Part shown: positions 14,054-25,947 of the stretch, piece by piece
Layout: every line of letters begins with the position of its first letter
Numbering within the stretch: position 1 is the stretch's first letter
Assembly (NCBI RefSeq): GCF_000012925.1
Contig: NC_007517.1
Coordinates: forward strand, 1,170,001-1,202,000
Length of the DNA stretch: 32,000 bases
Direction: 5' to 3'
Origin: Geobacter metallireducens GS-15
Lineage (GTDB): Bacteria > Desulfobacterota > Desulfuromonadia > Geobacterales > Geobacteraceae
The notes under the pieces: model-generated
Told to the model about the DNA's origin: nothing
Databases searched by the model: none
The model's input: only the letters and a program-made list of their open reading frames with translations
Translations under genes and position numbers: made by a program

Positions 14054-14088
14054 AAAACCCGCCCCCGATAGAGGAGTCGGGTTTTTTT
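14054..14088 (+). terminator. Rho-independent terminator after tatA
   Basis: AAAACCCG...CGGGTTTTTTT: a GC stem (14058-14061 / 14078-14081 plus flanking pairs) followed by a T7 run. Confidence 0.6.
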
Positions 14089-14265
14089 ATGTGTATTGCT
14101 GATTAGCGTCAGTCTTCCCCTTGGCGGTTACATAGTCCCCTTTCCCCGTCCAAACCATCACTTATCAGCAGGAGAACATATTGTGACTTGTTTTGTCGCA
14201 ATTGTAGGTTAGGATGGGTTCACTGTTTTTGATTTGAGTGTCCGGCGGTGTTCCTGGAGGGGAAG

Positions 14266-16434
14266 ATGAGAGAACGACCGGTGGCCCATCTGGCGGAAGA
14301 TGGGCGGGTTCATGGGCTTGAGGAGCATCTGTGCGGGACGGCGTATTTTGCCGCAGCTTTTGCCGGAGAGTTTGGGTGTGCAGGGTGGGGGAGGCTTGCC
14401 GGAATCTGGCATGACCTCGGGAAATATTCTCATGAATTCCAACGCTACATACTGGACGATGGGCCACGAACCGATCATTCATCTGCCGGGGCGTTGTATG
14501 CCGTCCAACGGCTTGGGAAACTCGGGAGAGTCATAGCCTACCTTGTGGCCGGTCATCATGCCGGTCTCCTTGACTGGGCTGACAATACTGGCTCTAATCT
14601 GGAACGACGTCTTACCTCAACCGATTTGTTAGCCCGCGTGGTCCTCTCGGAACTCCCTCCCAATCTGCTTGAACAGCAAATTCCAGCCGAACGCCCGAAA
14701 CCGCCAGCCACCGACCTGACAGCTTCACTCTGGCTGCGAATGCTGTTTTCCTGCCTCGTGGATGCCGATTTTCTCGATACCGAAGCGTTTTTCAATCCTG
14801 CACCGGTCGGCCAACGTAGCCGTTTCCCGACAATCGAAGAACTACTTCCCCTGTTCGATGCCTATATGGCCGACAAACAGGCCACCGCCTTTGATACTCC
14901 CGTCAACAGGCTGCGCGCTGAAATCCTTCGCCAATCCGTTGGTAAGGCTTTTCACTCACCGGGGTTTTTCTCCCTCACCGTTCCAACCGGCGGCGGCAAG
15001 ACCCTCTCGTCAATGGCTTTCGCCCTCAACCATGCCCGCGCCCACGGCAAGCGCCGCATCATTTACGTCATCCCCTATACCAGCATTATCGAACAGACCG
15101 CCGATCAGTTCCGGGAGGTATTCGGTGATTCGGTCGTGGAACACCACAGCAACGTGGCCCGTCAGGACAGTGACGAGGAAGGACAGCGCCTGCGCCTGGC
15201 GTCTGAAAACTGGGATGCACCGGTCATCGTCACCACCTCGGTTCAGTTCTTCGAATCGCTCTTTGCCAGCCGCACCAGCCGGTGCCGCAAGCTGCACAAC
15301 ATCGTCAACAGTGTGGTGGTCCTCGACGAGGCCCAACTACTCCCTCCGGATTTCCTTAATCCGATTCTCGAAGCCCTCAAGGAGTTGCAGAAGAACTACG
15401 GGACCACGGTAGTCATTTGTACGGCTACCCAGCCGGCCCTTGGTCCGCATCAATCGGCGAACTTCGACTTCAAGGGGATTCCCGAGATAACGGAAATTAT
15501 GGACGATCCGGCGAAGCTCCATGTGAAGCTCAAGAGGACTCGTATCCATAAACTGCGTGACCTTGCCCCGGTTTCATGGGATGAGCTTGCCGAGGAGCTT
15601 GAGTGGCAGGATTCAGCTCTCTGCATCGTCAACCGCCGCGACGATGCCCGCACGCTGTGGGAAAAGATGCCGAAGGGGACGATTCATCTCTCCGCGCTCA
15701 TGTGCGGAGCCCATCGGGCACGGAAGATCGCCGAGATCAAGGAGCGGCTCAGGAACAGGGAACCGACCCGTGTCATCAGCACCCAGCTGGTGGAAGCGGG
15801 GGTGGACGTGGATTTCCCTATTGTTTATCGGGCTGCGGCCGGCCTCGACTCAATTGCCCAGGCAGCCGGGCGGTGCAATAGGGAGGGGCTGCTGGAATGG
15901 GGGGAAGTATTCGTCTTTACCCCACCGTCAAAAATCCCGGCGGGGCACCTTCAGCAGGCGGCGGGGATCGGCATGCGGCTTCTGGCCGAAGCAGAAAGTG
16001 ACCCGTTGTCCATGGAGCGATTTGAGGCCTTTTTCAGGGAGTTCTACTGGATGCGCGGCGACCGCCTTGACCGTGAAAATATCATCGGCCTGTTGCGGAA
16101 CGATGTGGGGTTGCGATTCAGCTTCCGCACCGCGGCCAGAAAGTTTCAGCTTATTGACGAGAGTGCCCAGGCGCCGGTGATCGTCCAATTCGAGAATGAC
16201 GAACTGCTGTCTCTGCTGGAACGCCAGGGACCGGAGCGCTGGCTGCTGCGAAAACTTCAACGTTCGGTGGTCAACCTGCCGCGCTACCTGCACAATCGTT
16301 TGTTGTCTGAAGGGGCAATCCGGGAAAGGTGTCCCGGTATCTTCGTGCAGGCACATGGCGCCCTGTATCACCCTGATCTCGGTTTCTGTCCGGATAAGTC
16401 GATCGTGTACGAGCCTGACGAATTAATCGGATGA
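14266..16434 (+). CDS. cas3: Cas3 HD nuclease / SF2 helicase (type I)
   Basis: HD domain (HLCGTA..., GIWHDLGKYSHEFQ, VAGHHAGL). Helicase motifs (TVPTGGGKT, VVLDEAQ, CTATQP, STQLVEAGVDVDF, AGRCNREG). ATG 14266 is preferred over GTG 14248 because GGAGGGG lies 3-9 nt upstream. Confidence 0.9.
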   Translation: MRERPVAHLAEDGRVHGLEEHLCGTAYFAAAFAGEFGCAGWGRLAGIWHDLGKYSHEFQRYILDDGPRTDHSSAGALYAVQRLGKLGRVIAYLVAGHHAGLLDWADNTGSNLERRLTSTDLLARVVLSELPPNLLEQQIPAERPKPPATDLTASLWLRMLFSCLVDADFLDTEAFFNPAPVGQRSRFPTIEELLPLFDAYMADKQATAFDTPVNRLRAEILRQSVGKAFHSPGFFSLTVPTGGGKTLSSMAFALNHARAHGKRRIIYVIPYTSIIEQTADQFREVFGDSVVEHHSNVARQDSDEEGQRLRLASENWDAPVIVTTSVQFFESLFASRTSRCRKLHNIVNSVVVLDEAQLLPPDFLNPILEALKELQKNYGTTVVICTATQPALGPHQSANFDFKGIPEITEIMDDPAKLHVKLKRTRIHKLRDLAPVSWDELAEELEWQDSALCIVNRRDDARTLWEKMPKGTIHLSALMCGAHRARKIAEIKERLRNREPTRVISTQLVEAGVDVDFPIVYRAAAGLDSIAQAAGRCNREGLLEWGEVFVFTPPSKIPAGHLQQAAGIGMRLLAEAESDPLSMERFEAFFREFYWMRGDRLDRENIIGLLRNDVGLRFSFRTAARKFQLIDESAQAPVIVQFENDELLSLLERQGPERWLLRKLQRSVVNLPRYLHNRLLSEGAIRERCPGIFVQAHGALYHPDLGFCPDKSIVYEPDELIG

Positions 16435-16437
16435 GAC

Positions 16438-16465
16438 TTGACAATTATTTCAGTTTAGATAAAAG
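16438..16465 (+). promoter_or_regulatory. Sigma-70-type promoter candidate for the psi-array and cas5-cas8c-cas7
   Basis: TTGACA (16438-16443), 16 nt, TAAAAG (16460-16465). It begins 4 nt after the cas3 stop. Confidence 0.5.
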
Positions 16466-16564
16466 GTAAAACAGATTCCAGTAAATGGAAAAGGATTGAA
16501 ACAGTTTCGAAAACAGGTGGCAAAGTGAAAGCGCCCGCCTCAGTGGGCGGGCGCAGTAGTCTCC
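16466..16564 (+). ncRNA. crRNA-like mini-array (psiR1 - 25-nt psiS - psiR2), candidate cas-regulating RNA
   Basis: psiR1 16466-16502 keeps GTA and the terminal 11 nt AGGATTGAAAC of the array repeat. psiS 16503-16527 is AGTTTCGAAAACAGGTGGCAAAGTG. psiR2 16528-16564 keeps AGCGCCCGCCT/GGCGGGCG (stem intact, loop changed) and loses the 3' 11 nt. Confidence 0.6.
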
Positions 16565-16582
16565 GCGAAAGGAGGGAAATGT

Positions 16583-17266
16583 ATGGATATGGCATCCACC
16601 AAAAGCCGGATGCTGCGCCTCAAGGTCTGGGGCGACAACGCCTGCTTCACTCGGCCCGAAATGAAGGTGGAGCGGGTCTCCTATGATGTCATGACCCCAT
16701 CGGCGGCGAGGGGCGTTCTGGAGGCGATTCTCTGGAAACCGGCCATCCGATGGCAGGTGGACCGGATCGACGTGCTGAAGCCGATCCGCTGGGAGTCGGT
16801 GCGGCGCAACGAAGTGGGGAGCGTCATGTCTCCACGAACTAATGGGCTGTTCATCGAGGAACAGCGCCAGCAGCGGGCCGGCCTGTTCCTGCGGGATGTC
16901 GCTTATACCATCCACGCTTGGTTCGAGATGACCGTGCCGCCAGACGAAAGGAACAACGTCATCAAGTTCCAGGAAATGTTCATCTGTCGGGCATCCAAGG
17001 GAAAATGCTTCAACCAGCCGTACCTGGGGACACGGGAGTTCTCTGCCGGCTTCGAGCTAATTCCCCACGACCAATCCCTGCCGGAGCCGATTGTCGAGAC
17101 GCGCGACCTCGGTTTCATGCTCTACGATCTCTGCCACGACACCAGCAGGGATGAGGGGCACGTCCATACCTGCACCGACGGTTGCCGCCCTTCGTTCTTC
17201 CGGGCAGCTTTGAAGGATGGCAGAATGATGGTTCCGGCCCGTGACAGCGAGGAGGTGCGGCGATGA
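16583..17266 (+). CDS. cas5: Cas5c/Cas5d (type I-C crRNA endonuclease subunit)
   Basis: MLRLKVWGDNACFTRPEMKVERVSYDVMTPSAARGVLEAILWKP is the hallmark Cas5d N-terminus. AAGGAGG RBS. Confidence 0.92.
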   Translation: MDMASTKSRMLRLKVWGDNACFTRPEMKVERVSYDVMTPSAARGVLEAILWKPAIRWQVDRIDVLKPIRWESVRRNEVGSVMSPRTNGLFIEEQRQQRAGLFLRDVAYTIHAWFEMTVPPDERNNVIKFQEMFICRASKGKCFNQPYLGTREFSAGFELIPHDQSLPEPIVETRDLGFMLYDLCHDTSRDEGHVHTCTDGCRPSFFRAALKDGRMMVPARDSEEVRR

Positions 17267-19023
17267 TACTGCAGGCGTTGCATGGCCTTTATGTTCGTAA
17301 ACAGGATGAACTGCCGCCGGAAGGATTCGAGCAAAAGGAAATCCCTTTTCTGATTGTCCTCAATGGTGACGGAACCTTCGGCGACTTTCAGGATACGAGG
17401 AACAGGTCGGGAAAGAAACTGATCGCGCGTCAGTTCAGGGTGCCCAAGGACAGCGGTAGATCGGGGAAAAACGCATGGCAGAGCGCCAACCTGCTCTGGG
17501 ACCATTACGGCTATGTCCTTTGCTGGCCCAAATCGGATTCGGATGCCGACAAGGAGATGGCGCGGAAGCAGCACGGAACATTCGTTGAGAGGGTTGGAGA
17601 GCTTGCCGCTGCGTATCCTCAAGATAAAGGCGTTCAGGCGGTCATGCGCTTTTTGAAATCCGACGAGAGAGAAAAGTTACTTGAACATCCTGCGTGGGAG
17701 GAATGTCGGAAAATTCCAGGCTGTAATCTGAGCTTCAGGTTGTCCGATGAGTTAAGCCTTGTCTGTGAAAGCGATAACGTCAGGGAATTCGTCGCGAAAT
17801 CGTCCGCACAGGACGACGATGAAGATGACTCGACAACGGGGGACGTGGAAGGGATATGCCTCGTAACCGGCGAAAGTGCCACCGTGGCTCGACTGCATCC
17901 GCGAACGCCGATCATTGGGGCGAAGAGCAACGCGAAAATTGTCTCCTTTCAGAAAAACATGGGGTTCGACTCCTATGGCCGGCAGCAAAGCTACAACGCG
18001 CCGACCAGCAAGGGCGCCGCCTTTGCCTACACCACCGCCCTTAACCATCTGCTGGCCAAGGAATCAAGACAGAAACTGCTGATTGGCAGCGACACCATGG
18101 TTTTCTGGGCTGGTGAAAAGCACCGTGTCGAAGATCTTTTCGCCGATCTTTTCGGCGAACCGGCCAAGGAAAACCTCGATCAAACAACCCAGGCGATCCG
18201 TTCCCTCTACACCGCTCCACAAGCCGGCACACCGCCCCTCGACCACGATCTCACCCCGTTCTTCGTCCTCGGCCTTGCCCCCAACGCGGCCCGCATTGCC
18301 GTCCGTTTCTGGCACGCCGGAACGGTCGGCGAAACCGCCCGCCATATTCGACAGCACTTCGATGACTGCGCCGTCGTTCACGGCCCCAATCAGCCGGAAT
18401 ACCTTTCCCTTTTCCGGTTGCTGGTTTCCACGGCAATGCAGGGGAAGTCAGAGAACATCCCACCGAATCTGGCCGGCGACCTCATGAAATCGATTCTGGC
18501 GGGAACGCCCTATCCCCAGTCTTTGCTTTCGGCGGCGATTCGGCGCTGTCGTGCCGAGCGCGAAATCACCTACCCCCGCGTGTCTGTCATAAAGGCCGTA
18601 TTGGCGCGGGGAACAAGATACTACACATCAAACGAACAGGAGGTCGGCATGGCACTCGATGTAACCAATACCAATCCGGGCTATCGGCTCGGGCGGCTTT
18701 TCGCCGTACTGGAGAAGATCCAGGAAGAGGCAAGCCCCGGCATCAATGCCACCATCCGTGACCGCTTCTACGGCGCGGCTTCGGGAACGCCGGTGGCAGC
18801 ATTCCCGCACCTGATGAAGCTGAAGAACCACCATCTGGCAAAGCTCGAAAACCGGGGCCGGGCGGTCAATCTGGAAAAGATCGTCGGCGAAATCATGGAT
18901 GGTCTTGATGATTTTCCGACTCACCTGAGTCTCCAGGACCAGGGGCGCTTTGCTGTTGGCTACTATCATCAGCGCCAGGATTTTTTCAAAAAGAACGAAA
19001 CCACAACCAACGTGAATCCATAG
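17263..19023 (+). CDS. cas8c: Cas8c (Csd1) large subunit, type I-C
   Basis: 586 aa, ATGA-coupled to cas5. The position between cas5 and cas7 and its size are typical of Csd1. N-terminus MILQALHGLY.... Confidence 0.85.
   Translation: MILQALHGLYVRKQDELPPEGFEQKEIPFLIVLNGDGTFGDFQDTRNRSGKKLIARQFRVPKDSGRSGKNAWQSANLLWDHYGYVLCWPKSDSDADKEMARKQHGTFVERVGELAAAYPQDKGVQAVMRFLKSDEREKLLEHPAWEECRKIPGCNLSFRLSDELSLVCESDNVREFVAKSSAQDDDEDDSTTGDVEGICLVTGESATVARLHPRTPIIGAKSNAKIVSFQKNMGFDSYGRQQSYNAPTSKGAAFAYTTALNHLLAKESRQKLLIGSDTMVFWAGEKHRVEDLFADLFGEPAKENLDQTTQAIRSLYTAPQAGTPPLDHDLTPFFVLGLAPNAARIAVRFWHAGTVGETARHIRQHFDDCAVVHGPNQPEYLSLFRLLVSTAMQGKSENIPPNLAGDLMKSILAGTPYPQSLLSAAIRRCRAEREITYPRVSVIKAVLARGTRYYTSNEQEVGMALDVTNTNPGYRLGRLFAVLEKIQEEASPGINATIRDRFYGAASGTPVAAFPHLMKLKNHHLAKLENRGRAVNLEKIVGEIMDGLDDFPTHLSLQDQGRFAVGYYHQRQDFFKKNETTTNVNP
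18649..19023 (+). CDS. cas11c: Candidate internally translated small subunit Cas11c (124 aa, in frame within cas8c 3' end)
   Basis: A perfect AGGAGG (18638-18643) lies 5 nt upstream of in-frame ATG 18649. The product would be the C-terminal 124 aa of Cas8c, the size range expected for a Cas11-type small subunit. Confidence 0.5.
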   Translation: MALDVTNTNPGYRLGRLFAVLEKIQEEASPGINATIRDRFYGAASGTPVAAFPHLMKLKNHHLAKLENRGRAVNLEKIVGEIMDGLDDFPTHLSLQDQGRFAVGYYHQRQDFFKKNETTTNVNP

Positions 19024-19029
19024 GAGGAG

Positions 19030-19890
19030 ATGACCATGACCATTCAGAACCGCTATGACTTTGTACTGTTTTTCGACGTGAAGGACGGCAACCCCAACGG
19101 CGACCCTGACGCCGGCAACCTTCCCCGCATTGATCCGGAAACCGGCCATGGGCTGGTGACGGACGTCTGCCTGAAGCGGAAAGTGCGGAACTACGTTCAA
19201 TTGGATAAGGAGCTGTCGCAGGGGTATGACATCTTTGTCAAAGAGAAGGCGATTCTCAACAACCTGATTGATGAGGCCCACGAACAGGAAAACGTAAAGG
19301 CAAAGGAAAAGGGTGAAAAAACCGAGGCCGCTCGGCAGTTCATGTGTGGCAAATACTTCGACGTTCGGACTTTTGGTGCGGTCATGTCCACCGGCAAGAA
19401 CGCAGGCCAGGTTCGTGGCCCGGTCCAGTTGACCTTTGCCCGCAGCGTCGACCAGATCGTGCCGCTGGAGCACAGCATCACCCGCATGGCAGTGGCAACT
19501 CCTGCCGAGGCTGAGAAGCAGGATGGGGATAACCGCACCATGGGACGCAAATTTACCGTCCCCTATGCCCTCTATCGTTGCCACGGCTTCATTTCTGCAC
19601 CGCTGGCGGCCCAGACCGGTTTCAGCGAGGAAGACCTTGAACTTTTCTGGCAGTCATTGGTCAACATGTTCGAACACGATCGCTCGGCGGCCCGCGGCCA
19701 GATGTCGGCCCGCAAGCTGATCGTCTTCAAGCATGACTCTAAAATGGGGAACGCTCCGGCACACCACCTCTTTGATCTGGTCTCTGCCGAGGCATCAGAG
19801 ACGCCAGTCCGCAGCTTCGATCAGTACGATATCTGTGTGCCCACTCAGGAGAATATGCCGACAGGTGTGACGGTCGTCGAGAAGTTGTAA
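19030..19890 (+). CDS. cas7: Cas7c (Csd2) backbone subunit, type I-C
   Basis: [49 protein letters not shown] is the conserved Csd2 N-terminus. The true start may be ATG 19036, which has better spacing to GGAGGA at 19023-19028. Confidence 0.9.
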
Positions 19891-19899
19891 TGTTCTCTC

Positions 19900-20011
19900 G
19901 TAGGGGCAATTCATGAATTGCCCCTACACACCTACGGACATGCTGTAAATTGCCCCTATGCATCATCGACATACCAACCAATAACCTGGGCGAACACAGA
20001 TTCGCCCCTAC
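19900..20011. repeat. REP cluster 5' of the RAYT gene
   Basis: Perfect 28-nt palindrome GTAGGGGCAATTCATGAATTGCCCCTAC (19900-19927). Half-site TAAATTGCCCCTA (19947-19958). Second-class palindrome GGGCGAA-cacaga-TTCGCCC-CTAC (19988-20011). Confidence 0.75.
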
Positions 20012-20025
20012 GAATGACGAATTGA

Positions 20026-20565
20026 ATGACCTATAATCCCGATATTCACCATCGCCGTTCCATCCGCCTGCGGGAATATGATTATTCCTCAGGCGGTGTG
20101 TATTTCGTGACGATGTGTGTCCAAGGGCGTGAATGTCTGTTCGGCGGGGTGGTCGATGGGGTCATGCAGTTGAACGAGGCGGGGCGGATGGTGGTGGGAA
20201 CATGGCACGGGTTGGCGGAGCGGTTTCCCAACATGACGACGGACGAATTCATCGTCATGCCGAACCATGTTCACGGGATCATGGTGGTTCAAGAAAATGA
20301 AATTGGTGGTGGTGTAGGGGCAATTCATGAATTGCCCCTACAGGTGGCTCGTCGAAATATGGTGATCCCGAAAATAATCGGCTATTTCAAGATGAATACC
20401 GCTAAACAGATCAACATAATGCGCGGCAGTGCAGGCATTCCCGTATGGCAGCGCAATTATTACGAACGGGTTATCCGAGATGAAAGGGAATTTACCAGCA
20501 TCCGGGAATACATCCGTTGCAATCTCCTGAAATGGGCCGATGACGAAGAAAACCCAGACCCTTAG
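20026..20565 (+). CDS. REP-associated tyrosine transposase (RAYT, IS200/IS605-like Y1 HUH family)
   Basis: HUH motif MPNHVHGIM. C-terminal WQRNYYERVIRDEREF tyrosine motif. ~180 aa and flanked by REPs. Confidence 0.8.
   Translation: MTYNPDIHHRRSIRLREYDYSSGGVYFVTMCVQGRECLFGGVVDGVMQLNEAGRMVVGTWHGLAERFPNMTTDEFIVMPNHVHGIMVVQENEIGGGVGAIHELPLQVARRNMVIPKIIGYFKMNTAKQINIMRGSAGIPVWQRNYYERVIRDEREFTSIREYIRCNLLKWADDEENPDP
20314..20341. repeat. REP palindrome embedded in frame in the RAYT coding sequence
   Basis: 28/28 identical to 19900-19927. It encodes VGAIHELPLQ between the HUH and Tyr motifs. Confidence 0.75.
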
Positions 20566-21906
20566 CAGGCCGTTGAAAAACTCCTTCATTTCCAGGGCAA
20601 TCCCCTTCAAGGAGATCATTTTAGGCCGATAGTTGCATTGATCTCGCCCTATTCGTTCTTTGAAACTTTGCTTTTTACCTTGATTTGGCCTTTTCGGGCG
20701 GGCTTTGCCACCAAGAGTCGCATTATTCCCCTGATTATGCCGTTTTCGTCCCGAGATTGCGCAGCCGGACCAGATTGTATGCCGCAATGGCCATGGTGAA
20801 GTACCAGTCGACTTTCGCTATTCCCCGATGCCGGGTCTTGCGGAGATTGCCGACAGTCTTGAGCCAGCCGAAGGCCTCTTCGATCCGCTTGCGAATCCTC
20901 AGGCTGGTTTTGTAGCCTTCGTGGCGGGTAGTCCTGCCATCGATGGCTGAGCGGCGGTTAGCGGTGTTCTGAGCAATGTGAGGGGTTACCTTGAGTGCTC
21001 GCAGATCTTTGACGCACTCTTTGGTGTCGTAGCCCTTGTCGCCGCCCATGGTGATCCGCTTGTTACCGGCGACGTCTGCGATCATCTCGACTGCGGTATC
21101 CCGCTCAGCGGTACCGGTTGCGTGGGTGATTCTGGCATCGACGATGATCCCGTTGCGGTTCTCCATGAGAGCGTGCCCGTGGTAACTGAGCTTCGCCTCT
21201 TTGCCCGAGCTTCTCCTGGCAATCCGCGCATCCGGATCGGTGGTGGAGGCATGGGTGTCGTTTTTGAGCTTTTCGCCGTGGAAATCACGCTCCGTGTTAC
21301 GACCCACTGGAGGCTTTGGTCCATCCTTGGGCCGAAAGCTCTTGATAGAAGCCCACGCCTCGATGAGGGTGCCGTCAACGCTGAAGTGCTCGTCGGACAA
21401 CAGCTTTGCCCTTCGGGCCTGCTCAACTACTTTTGCCAAGAGCAGCCGTGCCACGTCGGTATCGATCAACCGCTCCAGGTTGGTGGAAAACGAGGAGTGG
21501 TCCCAGACCTTCTCGTCCAGGGCCAATCCCACAAACCAGCGGAACAGGATGCTGTAGCTGATCTGCTCCACCAGCAGACGGTTACTCCTGATGGTGTACA
21601 GCGCCTGAAGCAGAAGTGCTTTAAGCAACTGCTCAGGAGGAATCGAGGGCCGGCCGGTGTGGGAGTACATGGCCTCGAATTGCGGGCTGAGCTCTGCAAG
21701 GGCCTTATCCACCATCGCCCTGATCGACCGCAAGGGGTGGTCCTTCGGGACGTACGACTCAGGGGAGAGATAACAGAACAGAGCTTCGGTTTTTGTCTCG
21801 GCGCCGCGCATAACTTTTCTCCTGTAAATTCAGATTGTTACGCGTAAAAATATAGCACAGTTCGCTAACTTATTGAATCAAAAAGGTTTAGTTTTTCAAC
21901 AACCTG
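20566..21906 (-). mobile_element. IS5-family insertion sequence (1341 bp) with 17-bp terminal inverted repeats and 4-bp TTAG target duplication
   Basis: Left end CAGGCCGTTGAAAAACT (20566-20582). Reverse complement of the right end CAGGTTGTTGAAAAACT (21890-21906), 15/17 identical. TTAG at 20562-20565 and 21907-21910. Confidence 0.85.
20735..21811 (-). CDS. IS5-family DDE transposase
   Basis: 358 aa. The N-terminal region (FCYLSPESYVPKDHPLRSIR...PSIPPEQLLKALLLQALYTIRSNRLLVEQISYSILFRWFVGL) is typical of IS5/IS1182-type transposases. The C-terminal part is a DDE domain. Confidence 0.9.
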   Translation of the reverse strand: MRGAETKTEALFCYLSPESYVPKDHPLRSIRAMVDKALAELSPQFEAMYSHTGRPSIPPEQLLKALLLQALYTIRSNRLLVEQISYSILFRWFVGLALDEKVWDHSSFSTNLERLIDTDVARLLLAKVVEQARRAKLLSDEHFSVDGTLIEAWASIKSFRPKDGPKPPVGRNTERDFHGEKLKNDTHASTTDPDARIARRSSGKEAKLSYHGHALMENRNGIIVDARITHATGTAERDTAVEMIADVAGNKRITMGGDKGYDTKECVKDLRALKVTPHIAQNTANRRSAIDGRTTRHEGYKTSLRIRKRIEEAFGWLKTVGNLRKTRHRGIAKVDWYFTMAIAAYNLVRLRNLGTKTA

Positions 21907-21907
21907 T

Positions 21908-21973
21908 TAGGGGCAATTCACGCATTGCCCTAATGATGACACAACGATTGGGCAATTCATGAATTGCCCCTAC
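21908..21973. repeat. REP pair 3' of the RAYT unit (separated from it by the IS)
   Basis: TAGGGGCAATTCACGCATTGCCCTA (21908-21932, degenerate) and TTGGGCAATTCATGAATTGCCCCTAC (21948-21973). Confidence 0.7.
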
Positions 21974-21983
21974 AAGGATTGTT

Positions 21984-22598
21984 ATGAACGAACCCACCGA
22001 CCCCATCATGATCTCCGCCCTGGAGCATTACAGCTACTGCCCGCGTCAGTGCGCCCTGATCCACGTGGAGCAGGTGTGGGGCGAAAATCTCTACACCATG
22101 CGCGGCCGCGACGTGCATGAGAACGTGGATATGGAGTCGTCCCATGACGTTGCGGGCATCCGCTACGAGCGGGCGCTCCCCCTCTGGTCGAAACGGCTTA
22201 ACCTTATTGGCAAGGCCGATCTGGTGGAATTTCACGGTGAAACTCCCTATCCGGTGGAGTACAAATCGGGCAGGCACCGGGACGGCCGCCATGAGGCGCT
22301 GCAACTCTGTGCCCAAGCCATCTGCCTCGAAGAGATGTTCGGGGTTGCGGTGGAGAAGGGAGCGCTCTTCTGGCATGGTTCGCGGGAGAGGAGGGAAGTT
22401 GTTTTTACCGACGTAATACGGGAGCACGTAGAGAAAGCGGCAGAAGGTGTCTTTGCACTGATTGCGCAATCCACCGTCCCGCCGCCGGTGAACGACAAGC
22501 GCTGCACCCATTGCTCACTGAAGGAATCATGTCTTCCCGCCGTCGTTGCCGAGAAGGACAGAAGCCGCAGGGTGGCGCGGGAATTGTTTGAAATTTGA
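21984..22598 (+). CDS. cas4: Cas4 RecB-like nuclease with 4-Cys cluster
   Basis: ISALEHYSYCPRQCAL at the N-terminus, central D..EYK motif (DLVEF...VEYKSG), C-terminal CTHCSLKESC. Confidence 0.88.
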   Translation: MNEPTDPIMISALEHYSYCPRQCALIHVEQVWGENLYTMRGRDVHENVDMESSHDVAGIRYERALPLWSKRLNLIGKADLVEFHGETPYPVEYKSGRHRDGRHEALQLCAQAICLEEMFGVAVEKGALFWHGSRERREVVFTDVIREHVEKAAEGVFALIAQSTVPPPVNDKRCTHCSLKESCLPAVVAEKDRSRRVARELFEI

Positions 22599-22608
22599 GG
22601 GGGGATGG

Positions 22609-23445
22609 ATGGAAACGAAGTTGGTTGTTTTTCAGAGTAAGGAGATTAGGCGCCTACTGGTGGATAATGTCTGGTTCTTTGCCGTTGTTGATGTGATAGC
22701 CGCATTGACGGACAGCGACAAGCCCCGCGACTACTGGTATCGCATGAAAAAGCGGGAACTTGATGCCAGTGGAATCGAGTTGTCGACATTTTGTCGACAA
22801 CTGAAACTGGAGTCTTCGGATGGGAAAAAATATCTGACGGAGATGGCCAGCACCGAAGGCCTTTTCCGCATCATCCAGTCCATCCCGTCTCCCAAGGCCG
22901 AGCCCTTCAAACGCTGGCTGGCAAAGGTTGGCTACGAGCGGGTCCAGGAGATCGAAGACCCCGAACTGGCCACGAAGCGCATCCGCGAGTTGTACAAGGC
23001 CAAGGGATATTCAGAAGCCTGGGTCGAGAAGCGGATGCGTGGCATCGCCATTCGGGCGGAGCTGACGGAGGAGTGGAAAAACCGGGGAGTGAAGGGGGAG
23101 CCTGAGTACGCCATCCTTACCGCCGAAATCTCCAAGGCCGCCTTCGGCATGACCCCCGGCGAGTACAAGCAGTTCAAGGGGCTCGGACGTGAGAACCTGC
23201 GGGACCACATGACCGACCTGGAGCTGATCTTCTCGATGCTGGGGGAGGCGGCCACGACGGAGATTGCACGCAAGCAGGATGCTCAAGGCTTTCCCGAAAA
23301 CAAGGTGGCGGCCCACAAGGGGGGGCGGATTGCCGGCGAGGCACGGGAAAAGCTGGAGGTGGAAACCGGCGAACGGGTGGTGACGTCAGAAAATTTCCTG
23401 GTGGAACCAGAAAGTCGCAAGCGGCTGAAAGGGAAAAAGCCATGA
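22609..23445 (+). CDS. Bro-N domain / DinD-like (antirepressor-type) protein inserted between cas4 and cas1
   Basis: N-terminus VVFQSKEIRRLLVDNVWFFAVVDVIAALTDSDKPRDYWYRMK fits the Bro-N pattern (F..g..iR....g..WF.a.Dv..aL). ATG 22609 is preferred over 22546 (GAGGGGGG RBS, begins 10 nt after the cas4 stop). Its stop overlaps the cas1 ATG (ATGA). Confidence 0.8.
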   Translation: METKLVVFQSKEIRRLLVDNVWFFAVVDVIAALTDSDKPRDYWYRMKKRELDASGIELSTFCRQLKLESSDGKKYLTEMASTEGLFRIIQSIPSPKAEPFKRWLAKVGYERVQEIEDPELATKRIRELYKAKGYSEAWVEKRMRGIAIRAELTEEWKNRGVKGEPEYAILTAEISKAAFGMTPGEYKQFKGLGRENLRDHMTDLELIFSMLGEAATTEIARKQDAQGFPENKVAAHKGGRIAGEAREKLEVETGERVVTSENFLVEPESRKRLKGKKP

Positions 23446-24476
23446 AACAGATCCTCAACACCCTCTACGTCATGACCCAGGGGGCCTATGTCTGCCTCGA
23501 CCACGAAACGGTGAAGGTGGAGGTGAAGGGCGCACTCCAGATGCAGGTGCCGCTTCACCATCTGGGGGCCATCGTCACCATGGGGAACGTCATGATGAGT
23601 CCCTTCATCATGGCGCGTTGTGCCGAGGACGGCCGGGCGCTGGTGATCCTCGACCGTAACGGCAAGTTCAAGTGCCGCGTCGTCGGCAAGACCAGCGGCA
23701 ACGTGCTCCTGCGCCAGACCCAGTACGAGGCGGTGCGGGATAGGGAGCGCTCCGCGGCAATCGCCCGGAACATGGTGGCGGGGAAGGTTAAGAATGCCCG
23801 CCAGATCCTCATGCGGGGAGCGCGCGAAACCACCGACGCTGATGAAAGCGCCGTCCTGCGAAAAGCGGGCGACACCCTGGCCGATGCGCTCTTCCATCTC
23901 AAGGACGCGACGGATATCGACCATGTGCGCGGATTGGAGGGGGAGGCGGCCAACGCCTATTTCCAGGTGTTCGACCGGATGGTGAAGGAAGAGGAGCGCC
24001 CGGCCTTCAGGATGAACGGCCGCAACCGCCGGCCTCCGCTCGATCCCATGAACGCACTTCTCTCCTTCCTCTATACGCTGCTTCTCAACGACTGCATCAG
24101 CGCCGTAGAAGGAGTGGGGCTCGATTCCCAGATGGGCTTTCTTCATGTCCTACGTCCGGGGCGGCCTTCCCTCGGGCTCGACATCATGGAAGAATTCCGA
24201 GCGGTGCTGGCGGACCGGCTGGCCCTTACCCTCATCAACCGGAAGCAGATCACTGAAAAACATTTCGAGGTGCGGCCCGGCGGGGCCACCTATCTGGACG
24301 ATGCGGGCCGGAAGGAAGTCATCATGGCCTATCAGAAGCGGAAACAGGATGAATTTCACCATCCGGTCCTCGACCAGAAAGTTCCCTTCGGGCTCTTACC
24401 CCACGTTCAAGCCCGGCTGCTGGCCCGGCATCTGCGGGGGGACCTGGAGCAGTACACGCCGGTGCTCTATTCATAG
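23442..24476 (+). CDS. cas1: Cas1 integrase (type I-C)
   Basis: 344 aa, MKQILNTLYVMTQGAYVCLDHETVKV. Conserved NALLSFLYTLL, GLDSQMGFLH and D..EEFR motifs. Confidence 0.93.
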   Translation: MKQILNTLYVMTQGAYVCLDHETVKVEVKGALQMQVPLHHLGAIVTMGNVMMSPFIMARCAEDGRALVILDRNGKFKCRVVGKTSGNVLLRQTQYEAVRDRERSAAIARNMVAGKVKNARQILMRGARETTDADESAVLRKAGDTLADALFHLKDATDIDHVRGLEGEAANAYFQVFDRMVKEEERPAFRMNGRNRRPPLDPMNALLSFLYTLLLNDCISAVEGVGLDSQMGFLHVLRPGRPSLGLDIMEEFRAVLADRLALTLINRKQITEKHFEVRPGGATYLDDAGRKEVIMAYQKRKQDEFHHPVLDQKVPFGLLPHVQARLLARHLRGDLEQYTPVLYS

Positions 24477-24489
24477 AAATTCCCCCCGG

Positions 24490-24563
24490 CCCCCCTTTCG
24501 CAAAGGGGGGAGTTACAGGCGGGGCGGGGATGAATTGCGAGTTCCCCTTTATGAAAGGGGGAT
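24490..24563. repeat. Two G/C-capped hairpin palindromes (miniature repeat element) between cas1 and cas2
   Basis: CCCCCCTTT-CGC-AAAGGGGGG (24490-24510) and CCCCTTT-ATG-AAAGGGG (24544-24560), each followed by a G-rich tail (GAGTTACAGGCGGGG / GATAGAGGGGGAT). Confidence 0.55.
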
Positions 24564-24576
24564 AGAGGGGGATTTG

Positions 24577-24870
24577 ATGTGGGTAGTTGTCTGCTATGAC
24601 GTGAACACCGAAACCAGAGAGGGTCGCCGGCGACTGCGACGGGTGGCCCAGGCGTGCAAGAACTATGGCCAGCGGGTCCAGAAGTCGGTGTTTGAATGTC
24701 AGGTCAATGAGATGAAGTTTGAGGATCTGCGGCGAAAATTGCTTCGGGAAATCAACAAGGAACAGGACAACCTCCGCTTCTATCGCCTGACAGAGCCCCG
24801 GGAGAACCATGTGGAAACCCATGGACTCACGCGAACGATCTTCTTTGATGATGAGCCGTTGATCGTTTGA
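24577..24870 (+). CDS. cas2: Cas2
   Basis: MWVVVCYDVNTETREGRRRLRRVAQACKNYGQRVQKSVFEC is the canonical Cas2 ferredoxin-fold N-terminus. 97 aa. The 24145 upstream extension in the ORF track overlaps cas1 out of frame. Confidence 0.9.
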   Translation: MWVVVCYDVNTETREGRRRLRRVAQACKNYGQRVQKSVFECQVNEMKFEDLRRKLLREINKEQDNLRFYRLTEPRENHVETHGLTRTIFFDDEPLIV

Positions 24871-25047: not shown

Positions 25048-25947
25048 GTAGCGCCCGCCTACATAGGCGGGCGAGGATTGAAACACTATGCGCTCCACTT
25101 TGGCCCTGATGTTGGCCGTGTAGCGCCCGCCTACATAGGCGGGCGAGGATTGAAACCGCCAAATCCGCCGCGCTCCACTCCCGGCAGAAGTTGTCGTAGC
25201 GCCCGCCTACATAGGCGGGCGAGGATTGAAACCAAGTCCGACTTGAAGATTTGTACTGTCGGCGCCGTAGCGCCCGCCTACATAGGCGGGCGAGGATTGA
25301 AACACCATCACCCCAGGGATCGGCACGGCCCGCATCGGTAGCGCCCGCCTACATAGGCGGGCGAGGATTGAAACTTGGTGCCCCAGGAAGAGTGGAAACC
25401 GCTGATCAGCGTCCGGTAGCGCCCGCCTACATAGGCGGGCGAGGATTGAAACTCGACCAACACCCCCGGCACGGTCATGTCGAAGGGTAGCGCCCGCCTA
25501 CATAGGCGGGCGAGGATTGAAACGACACCGGCCTCGACGGGTGGGACGCCGCCGCCTGTAGCGCCCGCCTACATAGGCGGGCGAGGATTGAAACGGGAGG
25601 GACGGTGATATCGTGCAGGGAATACCAAGTAGCGCCCGCCTACATAGGCGGGCGAGGATTGAAACACCTGATGCTGCCCCTGCGGTCTGCCGTGCGCGGG
25701 TAGCGCCCGCCTACGCAGGCGGGCGAGGATTGAAACAGGTCATTGGACCGGGCGAAGATGCGGCCCTGAGTAGCGCCCGCCTACGCAGGCGGGCGAGGAT
25801 TGAAACGGAATCAGTTCGCCGCGTTTTGTCCGAAGGTTAGTAGCGCCCGCCTACGCAGGCGGGCGAGGATTGAAACACACAGCCTCTCAATATACCGATA
25901 TCTCCTATTTGTAGCGTCCGCCTACGTAGGCCGGTGAAGCAACAGAG
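25048..25947 (+). CRISPR. CRISPR array: 12 intact 37-nt repeats + 1 degenerate terminal repeat, 12 spacers
   Basis: Repeat GTAGCGCCCGCCTACATAGGCGGGCGAGGATTGAAAC. Starts at 25048, 25120, 25196, 25267, 25338, 25416, 25487, 25558, 25629, 25700, 25770, 25840, and degenerate at 25911. Repeats 10-12 have loop TACGCA. The ATTGAAAC 3' end is typical of type I-C. Spacer lengths are 35, 39, 34, 34, 41, 34, 34, 34, 34, 33, 33, 34. Confidence 0.97.

Follow-up and report, generated by a model that had tools for sequence, protein, structure and literature searches.

RNAs that resemble CRISPR RNAs (crRNAs) and that guide a CRISPR effector to a promoter by partial complementarity have been described for several types of system, type I-C included. 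This article concerns a candidate RNA of this kind in Geobacter metallireducens GS-15, encoded by a degenerate mini-array between cas3 and cas5c of a type I-C locus. The stretch of DNA analysed, hereafter the window, comprises 32,000 nt (NCBI RefSeq assembly GCF_000012925.1, contig NC_007517.1, positions 1,170,001 to 1,202,000 of the forward strand) and is numbered from its first letter. Autorepression by Cas-regulating RNAs, termed CreR, has been tested for I-B, I-E and V-A effectors, where it is relieved by array crRNAs or by anti-CRISPRs; creA-like elements of type I-C entered that 2023 work only as finds of a manual search (Fig. S7) (Liu et al., bioRxiv 10.1101/2023.03.10.532045). Regulatory mini-arrays have been recorded in 7 % of 1206 I-C loci, and the mini-array targets that were described belong to I-E and I-F1 (cas8), I-D (cas10d) and I-B (cas6), not to I-C (Shmakov et al., PMC10120712).

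For type I-C itself, a 2024 preprint describes crRNA-like RNAs (crlRNAs) that derive from solitary repeat units (SRUs) or mini-arrays located directly upstream of cas5c, mostly in Neisseria (bioRxiv 10.1101/2024.12.27.630466). According to small RNA sequencing and reporter assays in the same preprint, these RNAs are cut between a hairpin and an 11-nt handle that lies 3' to it, and they combine a complementarity of 16 bp, a mismatch at position 6 and a TTC protospacer-adjacent motif (PAM) with a 5-60-fold repression of Nezha, Gabija and eight 'CRISIS' cargo promoters. The architecture known from that work runs from cas3 through the TTC target with its promoter, the cargo defence or toxin genes and the SRU to cas5c. 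The variant that has two pseudo-repeats, psiR1 and psiR2 (Gabija-type), is an RNA of 57 nt, of which 11 nt form the 5' handle and 21 nt the 3' handle, so that simple arithmetic gives a guide of 25 nt; non-canonical 3' ends were also reported, and a search of the preprint's text for terms of autoregulation returned none (bioRxiv 10.1101/2024.12.27.630466).

The element considered here was first picked out in a reading of the window from its sequence alone, which proposed a Cascade autorepression RNA and left it open whether a I-C example had been described. A precedent exists: such elements were predicted for I-C in 2023, and I-C crlRNAs were validated in the 2024 preprint, with cargo genes as their targets. 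The novelty is lower than the sequence-only reading supposed, this kind of regulator having already been described, I-C included. As for the proposal itself, the analysis supports it, in that independent I-C loci obey the same targeting rule and the anatomy of the element matches that of the tested I-C crlRNAs. We put at roughly 0.7 the probability that the unit psiR1-psiS-psiR2 is a degenerate mini-CRISPR encoding a regulatory RNA of the CreR/crlRNA type for the I-C system of G. metallireducens.

Anatomy of the mini-array

The element spans 16438-16564 and lies directly before cas5c, after the end of cas3 at 16434 and before the cas5c ATG at 16583. Its parts, together with the CRISPR array of the same locus that serves as the reference for them, are as follows.

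16466-16502, + strand: psiR1, a degenerate version of the 37-nt array repeat, kept in register with it
16492-16502, + strand: exact 11-nt 5' handle segment AGGATTGAAAC, within psiR1
16503-16527, + strand: psiS, a 25-nt guide, AGTTTCGAAAACAGGTGGCAAAGTG, read from the sequence
16528-16564, + strand: psiR2, AAA-GCGCCCGCC-TCAGTG-GGCGGGCG-CAGTAGTCTCC
25048-25876, + strand: CRISPR array of 12 full 37-nt repeats (Rfam CRISPR-DR9)
About 25912, + strand: degenerate terminal repeat GTAGCGTCCGCCTACGTAGGCCGGTGAAGCAACAG (array including terminal repeat, 25048-25945)

The two pseudo-repeats retain different halves of the array repeat, GTAGCGCCCGCCTACATAGGCGGGCGAGGATTGAAAC. Within psiR1, GTA is kept at 16466-16468 and the handle at positions 27-37 of the pseudo-repeat, and the GC stem of the array repeat is swapped for a 5-bp hairpin, TTCCA-GTAAA-TGGAA (16476-16490), that ends 1 nt upstream of the handle. 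A scan of the window found exactly one copy of the handle outside the array, and 14 handle sites when those with one mismatch are included, against 0.38 expected. In psiR2, by contrast, the stem is identical to that of the array repeat, the loop has changed from TACATA to TCAGTG, and the 3' 11 nt (CAGTAGTCTCC) have diverged, so that the handle is lost. The stem GCGCCCGCC-N6-GGCGGGCG occurs once outside the array, at 16531-16553, with 0.07 expected, and the corresponding stem-loop (16531-16554) has a folding energy of -22.9 kcal/mol (z = -5.1). Both the handle and the stem copies lie on the array strand, in the correct order and register, with the pseudo-repeats 25 nt apart; spacers of the array measure 33-41 nt from the coordinates of its 12 repeats. 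On all of these points the sequence-only reading proved accurate: its coordinates and strings for psiR1, psiS, psiR2, the PAM, the target and the promoter hexamers were all correct, as were its statements that psiR1 ends in the array handle, that psiR2 keeps the stem but not the loop or the 3' end, and that psiS is shorter than the array spacers.

Cas5c cleaves the hairpin of the repeat at its 3' base, reads the cut site or stem base and the downstream 11-nt handle, and tolerates changes to the loop and the 5' overhang (PMC8524198). The halves retained in psiR1 and psiR2 make up the pattern that would be expected from this specificity. That the Rfam model CRISPR-DR9 matches the 12 array repeats and misses both psiR1 and psiR2 even at E <= 1 marks the two as strongly degenerate; an Rfam search of 16300-16700 likewise yielded no credible match. 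Between the target described below and cas5c, no + strand open reading frame (ORF) of 20 aa or more is fully contained, and the sole ATG-initiated frame on that strand of the interval is four codons long. A reading of psiR2 as a + strand terminator was rejected, its stem not being followed by a T-run; psiR2 was flagged as a terminator on the - strand only, and nothing convergent is evident there.

The repeat consensus of the array is the same as that published for CRISPR3 of G. metallireducens (PMC2700814). In the region 25700-25945, the last three full repeats have the loop TACGCA in place of TACATA; together with the degenerate end repeat, this variant is consistent with leader-proximal repeats on the cas2 side.

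Match of the guide to a PAM-flanked upstream site

The guide finds its counterpart within the same intergenic region, just downstream of cas3.

16449-16451, + strand: PAM 5'-TTC-3', on the non-target strand, i.e. the strand identical to psiS
16452-16467, + strand: protospacer-like target AGTTTAGATAAAAGGT, matched by psiS at 13/16 positions
16438-16443, + strand: TTGACA, candidate -35, a perfect hexamer read from the sequence
16460-16465, + strand: TAAAAG, weak candidate -10, 16 nt after TTGACA and inside the target

As first noted from the sequence, psiS and the target differ at positions 6, 9 and 12 and their similarity collapses after position 16 (3/9 matches over positions 17-25), although the footprint of a 25-nt guide would extend to 16476. 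The PAM begins 15 nt beyond the cas3 stop and lies 51 nt upstream of psiS, and the target sits between TTGACA and TAAAAG, 116 nt upstream of the cas5c ATG. On both strands of the 32-kb window, it is the sole TTC-flanked site with at least 11/16 matches to psiS. At TTC sites, 4-6 of 20000 trials with shuffled guides gave 13/16 matches (Monte Carlo P of about 2e-4) and none of 20000 gave 13/14 outside positions 6 and 12 (P < 5e-5), and random guides of the local, A-rich composition achieved the latter in none of 50000. The match is far beyond chance. The PAM, moreover, is one that a related effector uses: Cas5c of the window resembles the Neisseria lactamica Cas5c of PDB 8g9t (E = 4e-63), and the N. 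lactamica I-C Cascade in that complex has 5'-TTY as its PAM.

The same rule in independent I-C loci

A class-level scan covered 160 I-C loci, fetched by Cas5c similarity, plus the window. It sought a handle TGAAAC/G followed by a 16-nt guide matching a site within 600 nt, with guide positions 1-5 identical and at least 13/14 matches when positions 6 and 12 are ignored, and with all 64 possible flanks allowed. Five guide-target pairs were found, and four of them, in the window and in the loci designated L034, L040 and L058, are flanked by TTC. With a background frequency for TTC of 2.1%, the probability of four in five is 1e-6, and forty decoy handles produced 49 pairs of which 1 had TTC. Relaxing the threshold to 12/14 added L042, giving five TTC pairs in total, the guides of which are unrelated to one another in sequence.

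Cascade reads its target in segments of 5 nt and flips out each sixth base. Across the five TTC pairs, positions 6 and 12 are mismatched in 9 of 10 cells, as against 3 of 70 at the other positions from 1 to 16 (Fisher P = 9e-9), and positions 17-25 match at 27%, i.e. at random. All five loci thus share one rule, namely a TTC PAM, pairing over about 16-17 nt, freedom at positions 6 and 12, and randomness beyond 17. The segmented pattern is the signature of Cascade recognition and cannot be reconciled with a simple decaying duplication.

This comparison bears directly on whether the element could be a non-functional relic, that is, a decayed repeat-spacer-repeat in which a local duplication or a chance similarity of A/T-rich sequence mimics a target and no RNA-guided regulation takes place. 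The region is A-rich (44% A), a few identities (ATT...C) stand just 5' of both segments as they would in a duplicated repeat-spacer unit, the element is species-specific and the promoter scan called no promoter, all of which would suit a relic. However, a duplication should decay evenly, whereas two of the window's three mismatches fall at positions 6 and 12 (P = 0.025 for this locus by itself) and the same bias holds across the five loci (P = 9e-9); the flank is the exact I-C PAM; the only repeat halves kept, and kept exactly, are those required for function; and guides of the local composition never reached the observed match. A merely local duplication, which the sequence-only reading had named as the outcome that would undo its proposal, is excluded in its plain form because unrelated loci follow the same rule with unrelated guides. 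We therefore regard a relic as improbable.

The five loci differ in layout. L058, from an unrelated lineage, is cargo-less and is arranged like the window, in the order target, psiR1, psiS, hairpin, Shine-Dalgarno sequence and cas5. In L040 and L042, the module is divergent from cas5 and a small ORF stands behind the target. The distance from PAM to guide is 77-83 nt in L040, L042 and L058. A small psiR1 hairpin next to the handle is present in both the window and L040, with unrelated sequences; for L042, a comparable hairpin is seen by eye only and is not shown by the predicted fold. L040 and L042 share their layout and have different guide-target pairs, and their alignment is too divergent for a column-wise count of covariation.

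Several further features of the comparison loci deserve record. In L034 (370-720), the mini-array is directly upstream of cas3 (handle at 649-658, cas3 ATG at 778) and its TTC target, which matches at 14/14 outside positions 6 and 12, is another 286 nt upstream, a layout in which the entire cas3-cas5 operon would be under the RNA. The small ORF of L040 (2854-2973, + strand) and L042 (about 2839-2970, + strand) is a conserved hydrophobic frame of about 39 aa between the TTC target and cas5, with the sequences MDWKQWREIRLLCTELSATRFFALWLVLVILAISLFFGR and MDWPKIIRELRLLTTQLQTDRFYALYLLLGLMVFAYLTR; in L040, the target abuts a promoter-like TTGACG-17 nt-TATTTT of this ORF. Possibly, the ORF is a small toxin guarded by Cascade in the manner of CreTA, here in type I-C. 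L030 (6260-6645), from an uncultured Geobacter sp., carries two or three degenerate repeats right after cas7, each with a differing small hairpin followed by GAGGATTGAAAC; the spacer is short (about 29 nt), and a search of the 6.6-kb locus turned up no TTC-flanked target. Lastly, L009 (about 1370-1407) has a complete I-C-type repeat, GTCGCTCCCTGTGTGGGAGTGTGGATTGAAAC, some 0.8 kb upstream of cas5, at a place where one would look for the coding sequence of cas3, and this may represent a solitary repeat or a rearranged locus.

Origin of the element

Alignment with four relatives places the element within a lineage-specific addition to the locus.

16423-16563, + strand: insertion or replacement of about 125-140 bp

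The putative promoter, the target and the mini-array all lie within the inserted segment, which also took the place of the original 3' end of cas3, since the last 3-4 codons of that gene are rewritten (16423-16434, TTA ATC GGA TGA, where the relatives have a conserved CTG ATG TAT/TGC TGA). The element is absent from Geobacter grbiciae (L170), a Logan contig (L171), Geobacter argillaceus (L001) and a Geobacteraceae metagenome-assembled genome (L002), in which cas3 stop and cas5c start are separated by about 23-25 nt. The G. grbiciae locus is otherwise syntenic (FdhD/MobA, TatA, cas3, cas5 and so on), with a Cas8c in the same 90%-identity cluster. Among 23 contigs read were nine Logan contigs with an identical Cas5c (a protein with 70 blocks in the index); these nine do not differ from the window over 16400-16600 and are 99.98-100% identical to it over their full length.

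To trace the source of the insert, 16420-16570 was compared by blastn-short with every fetched locus and with the remainder of the window; the only matches were to the array repeats of the host itself. Searches further afield gave 0 matches in IMG/VR with a degenerate handle-plus-seed pattern, no match in PLSDB plasmids by distant blastn, and only a chance 39-nt match (E = 0.1) in INPHARED by the same means. A viral RNA anti-CRISPR (Racr/Cracr) was considered and rejected, such elements being located in a phage, prophage or plasmid and this one residing inside a chromosomal cas operon with the conserved synteny FdhD/MobA-TatA-cas3. A protospacer search of IMG/VR with the prefix of one array spacer, made for the PAM, also gave 0 matches.

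Alternatively, the element might be the scar of a lost cargo module, in which cargo was deleted between the target with its promoter and the SRU, leaving autoregulation as a by-product of a guarding purpose that is gone. The layout is indeed that of CRISIS, Nezha and Gabija minus the cargo; the 51 nt between PAM and guide are fewer than the 77-83 nt of L040, L042 and L058, and too few for the 37-46 bp from target to transcription start site of cargo promoters, as would fit a truncated promoter region; and the locus has undergone other rearrangements, with insertion sequence and transposase insertions between cas7 and cas4. Yet close relatives lack any cargo or SRU at this place, so that a gain and a loss would be needed where one event suffices, and L058 is cargo-less in an unrelated lineage. 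The exact handle, the exact stem and the intact PAM-proximal match point instead to ongoing selection or to a very recent origin. We consider such a scar unlikely, and even as one the element would autoregulate.

The proposed circuit

The explanation with the best support is that the element encodes a crRNA-like RNA directing Cascade to a partly matching, PAM-flanked site at the RNA's own presumed promoter. What can be read directly from the DNA is the retention of the repeat halves, the PAM, the segmented seed match and the location before cas5c; the steps that follow are a model. Transcription would proceed rightward, either from TTGACA-16 nt-TAAAAG, with a start near 16472, or, equally possibly, by read-through from cas3. 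Judging by what Cas5c is known to recognize, it would cut psiR1 at the hairpin base and so create the 11-nt handle AGGAUUGAAAC, and the GC hairpin of psiR2 would supply the 3' handle, with cleavage at psiR2 uncertain given the divergence of its post-stem nucleotides; the predicted product is about 62 nt, from 16492 to about 16553/16554. Cascade (Cas5c-Cas8c-Cas7-Cas11c) loaded with this RNA would recognize TTC at 16449-16451, and the RNA would pair with the bottom strand at guide positions 1-5, 7-8, 10-11 and 13-16. Because pairing ends at position 16 of a 25-nt guide, only a partial R-loop would form, so Cas3 would not be licensed, and Cascade seated on the -35/-10 spacer would act as a repressor or roadblock. 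The expected result is negative feedback on the RNA and on cas5c-cas8c-cas7, the genes downstream and the presumed regulatory output, with cas3 spared. By analogy with CreR, repression would be relieved by array crRNAs that compete for Cascade subunits, for which the array of the locus would be the source, or by anti-CRISPRs that inactivate Cascade.

A more specific version of this model would see in the element a newborn, cargo-less CreR of type I-C. The circuit would be a single-promoter loop whose RNA forms the 5' leader of the Cascade operon that it represses, being excised by Cas5c from that same transcript; it would have been born by one species-specific insertion of about 130 bp that split a tight cas3-cas5c operon; and Cascade, not Cas3, would sense crRNA load and anti-CRISPR activity. 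So specified, the model is given somewhat less than even odds.

A number of observations weigh against an autorepressing RNA. Folding of the psiR1 hairpin is weak (-4.5 kcal/mol, z = -1.8; 12/200 shuffles equal or better), and 12 nt instead of 11 nt separate its end from psiS. Right after its stem, psiR2 has the trinucleotide CAG in place of the AGG of the array repeat, and since one characterized Cas5c is sensitive at just that place (PMC8524198), 3' maturation of psiR2 may differ from that of the array. The match in the window is the second weakest of the five TTC pairs, owing to its extra mismatch at position 9. Being absent from close relatives and invariant in the G. metallireducens assemblies recovered, the element allows no demonstration of conservation or covariation. 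The promoter is a further difficulty. The sequence-only reading took TTGACA and TAAAAG as the promoter of both the RNA and cas5-cas8c-cas7; the hexamers are where it placed them, but TAAAAG does not have the usual T at position 6 and is a poor -10, a scan of 16000-17000 called no sigma-70 site, and a promoter consensus scan of the comparison loci gave mixed support only. A shared promoter at these hexamers is accordingly a conjecture from sequence. Its reality matters, as the crRNA would pair with the template strand, an orientation that in I-E is a poorer block to an elongating polymerase, and repression would then depend on the target truly being a promoter.

The question of transcription also raises the possibility that the element is an RNA-processing or uncoupling site, at which cuts by Cas5c separate the cas3 and cas5c-cas8c-cas7 mRNAs or stabilize the 5' end of the cas5c mRNA, with the main target of the RNA elsewhere, if there is one. 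A polycistronic precursor is plausible, as no terminator was found between cas3 and cas5c; the psiR2 stem-loop, at -22.9 kcal/mol, stands 16 nt before the Shine-Dalgarno sequence; and the scan for other targets covered 32 kb of a 4-Mb genome. Such a site, however, would leave unexplained both the TTC-flanked seed match 51 nt upstream and the recurrence of the arrangement in other loci, and the relatives do with a 23-nt cas3-cas5 junction that has no such site. We rate this the least probable of the alternatives considered, and highly improbable, and continue to favour the self-targeting crRNA-like RNA.

The surrounding locus

The window contains a complete type I-C system, as judged by NCBIfam matches for its cas genes. 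The features around the mini-array are the following.

14248-16434, + strand: cas3, HD nuclease and helicase (NCBIfam cas3_core, cas3_HD)
16570-16575, + strand: AGGAGG, Shine-Dalgarno sequence of cas5c, also kept in relatives without the insert
16583-17266, + strand: cas5c (NCBIfam equivalog above cutoff; ATG at 16583)
17263-19023, + strand: cas8c (NCBIfam equivalog above cutoff)
19030-19890, + strand: cas7 (NCBIfam equivalog above cutoff)
21984-22598: cas4
23442-24476: cas1
24145-24870: ORF containing cas2 (Cas2 domain, ORF residues 145-224)

Cas5c of the window is identical to ABB31305.1/WP_004513241.1 and Cas8c to ABB31306.1. A terminator-like site of tatA lies 5' of cas3, at 14064-14090, and for this reason cas3 is taken as the start of the transcription unit.

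Between cas7 and cas4 (19890-21984), an insertion of about 2.1 kb splits the effector genes from the adaptation genes; the corresponding gap in G. grbiciae is about 90 nt. The insertion includes an ORF (20026-20565) resembling a REP-associated tyrosine transposase, whose NCBIfam score of 57 bits does not reach the cutoff of 80; the minus strand carries an IS5-like DDE transposase (20735-21811; DUF772 and DDE_Tnp_1). Between cas4 and cas1 is an ORF of 299 aa with a Bro-N domain (22546-23445). Since G. grbiciae has a homologous Bro-N gene of 288 aa at the same place (L170, 7340-8206), this is a conserved non-cas gene within the adaptation module.

Significance

If confirmed, the element would provide a tested CreR-type autorepression for I-C, a type for which the literature consulted offers self-regulation only as a prediction, the tested I-C crlRNAs being regulators of cargo genes. 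G. metallireducens is a genetically tractable model organism, and if the proposal is true it forms with G. grbiciae a natural pair, with and without the element, on which the costs and benefits of CRISPR autorepression could be weighed. The comparison would also offer a dated example of the birth of a circuit, either de novo, out of a repeat of the host itself, or when a guarded cargo was lost. The targeting rule (TTC PAM, three 5-nt paired segments, free positions 6 and 12, nothing past 17 and sometimes a shortened guide) could serve to annotate elements that repeat finders and Rfam miss, and also to design I-C repressor guides that do not cut. Three points carry moderate interest: the proposed self-loop, which lacks cargo and is encoded in the leader; the very recent birth of the element, for which G. 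grbiciae is a natural comparator; and the clean pairing in three segments across unrelated I-C loci.

Comparison with known systems

Among class 2 systems, tracr-L of Streptococcus pyogenes (II-A) offers a parallel in that a natural guide of short complementarity has the effector repress the promoter of its own operon; it differs in its effector (Cas9), in being derived from the tracrRNA and in its PAM and guide rules. Like the CRISPR-repressed toxin-antitoxin RNA pairs termed CreTA, the Geobacter element would have a crRNA-like RNA guide Cascade to a promoter by partial complementarity; unlike CreTA, it has no toxin gene, whereas in L040 and L042 the target is followed by a small hydrophobic ORF. 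A CreTA-style toxin reading of the window was rejected, there being no plausible ORF or RNA-toxin cassette between the target and cas5c. With the mini-arrays surveyed by Shmakov et al., which match effector-gene promoters, it has in common a repeat-like make-up, a location between cas genes, a seed that is conserved, a mismatch at the sixth position and the cognate PAM; the I-F1 mini-arrays, however, are transcribed opposite to cas3, and the Geobacter RNA gene is co-directional with it.

The likeness to the I-C crlRNAs is more extensive. The Geobacter element, too, lies between cas3 and cas5c, immediately before cas5c, and consists of a psiR hairpin followed by the conserved 11-nt handle, with a 3' hairpin after the guide. 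Its PAM-proximal match of about 16 bp, with mismatches at 6 (and 12) and a 5'-TTC PAM, falls at an upstream promoter, here a candidate one, on the same strand, and its guide has the 25 nt of the Gabija-type variant. Differences are the absence of cargo genes, only the RNA and cas5c-cas8c-cas7 being downstream of the target, a repeat of 37 nt that predicts a 3' handle of 26 nt instead of 21 nt, and a host that is Geobacter, not Neisseria; in addition, the Geobacter element is known from sequence alone.

CreR shares with the element the form of a degenerate mini-CRISPR within a cas locus, its psiR1 retaining the nucleotides of the 5' handle and its psiR2 those of the 3' handle, a psiS partly complementary to a PAM-flanked site, which for CreR lies at an effector-gene promoter and in Geobacter at a candidate one, and a standalone state with the toxin gene absent, from which sensing of crRNA load and of anti-CRISPRs is predicted. 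The CreR work reportedly also appeared in Cell Host & Microbe in 2023. In Geobacter, unlike CreR, the RNA gene is in the 5' leader of the operon that it would repress and is presumably driven by the repressed promoter. Taken as a whole, the comparison suggests that the Geobacter element is akin to the I-C crlRNAs, that it stands apart from the cargo-bearing CRISIS loci because its PAM and psiS are 51 nt apart with no ORF between them, and that by its sequence features it fits the definition of a CreR.

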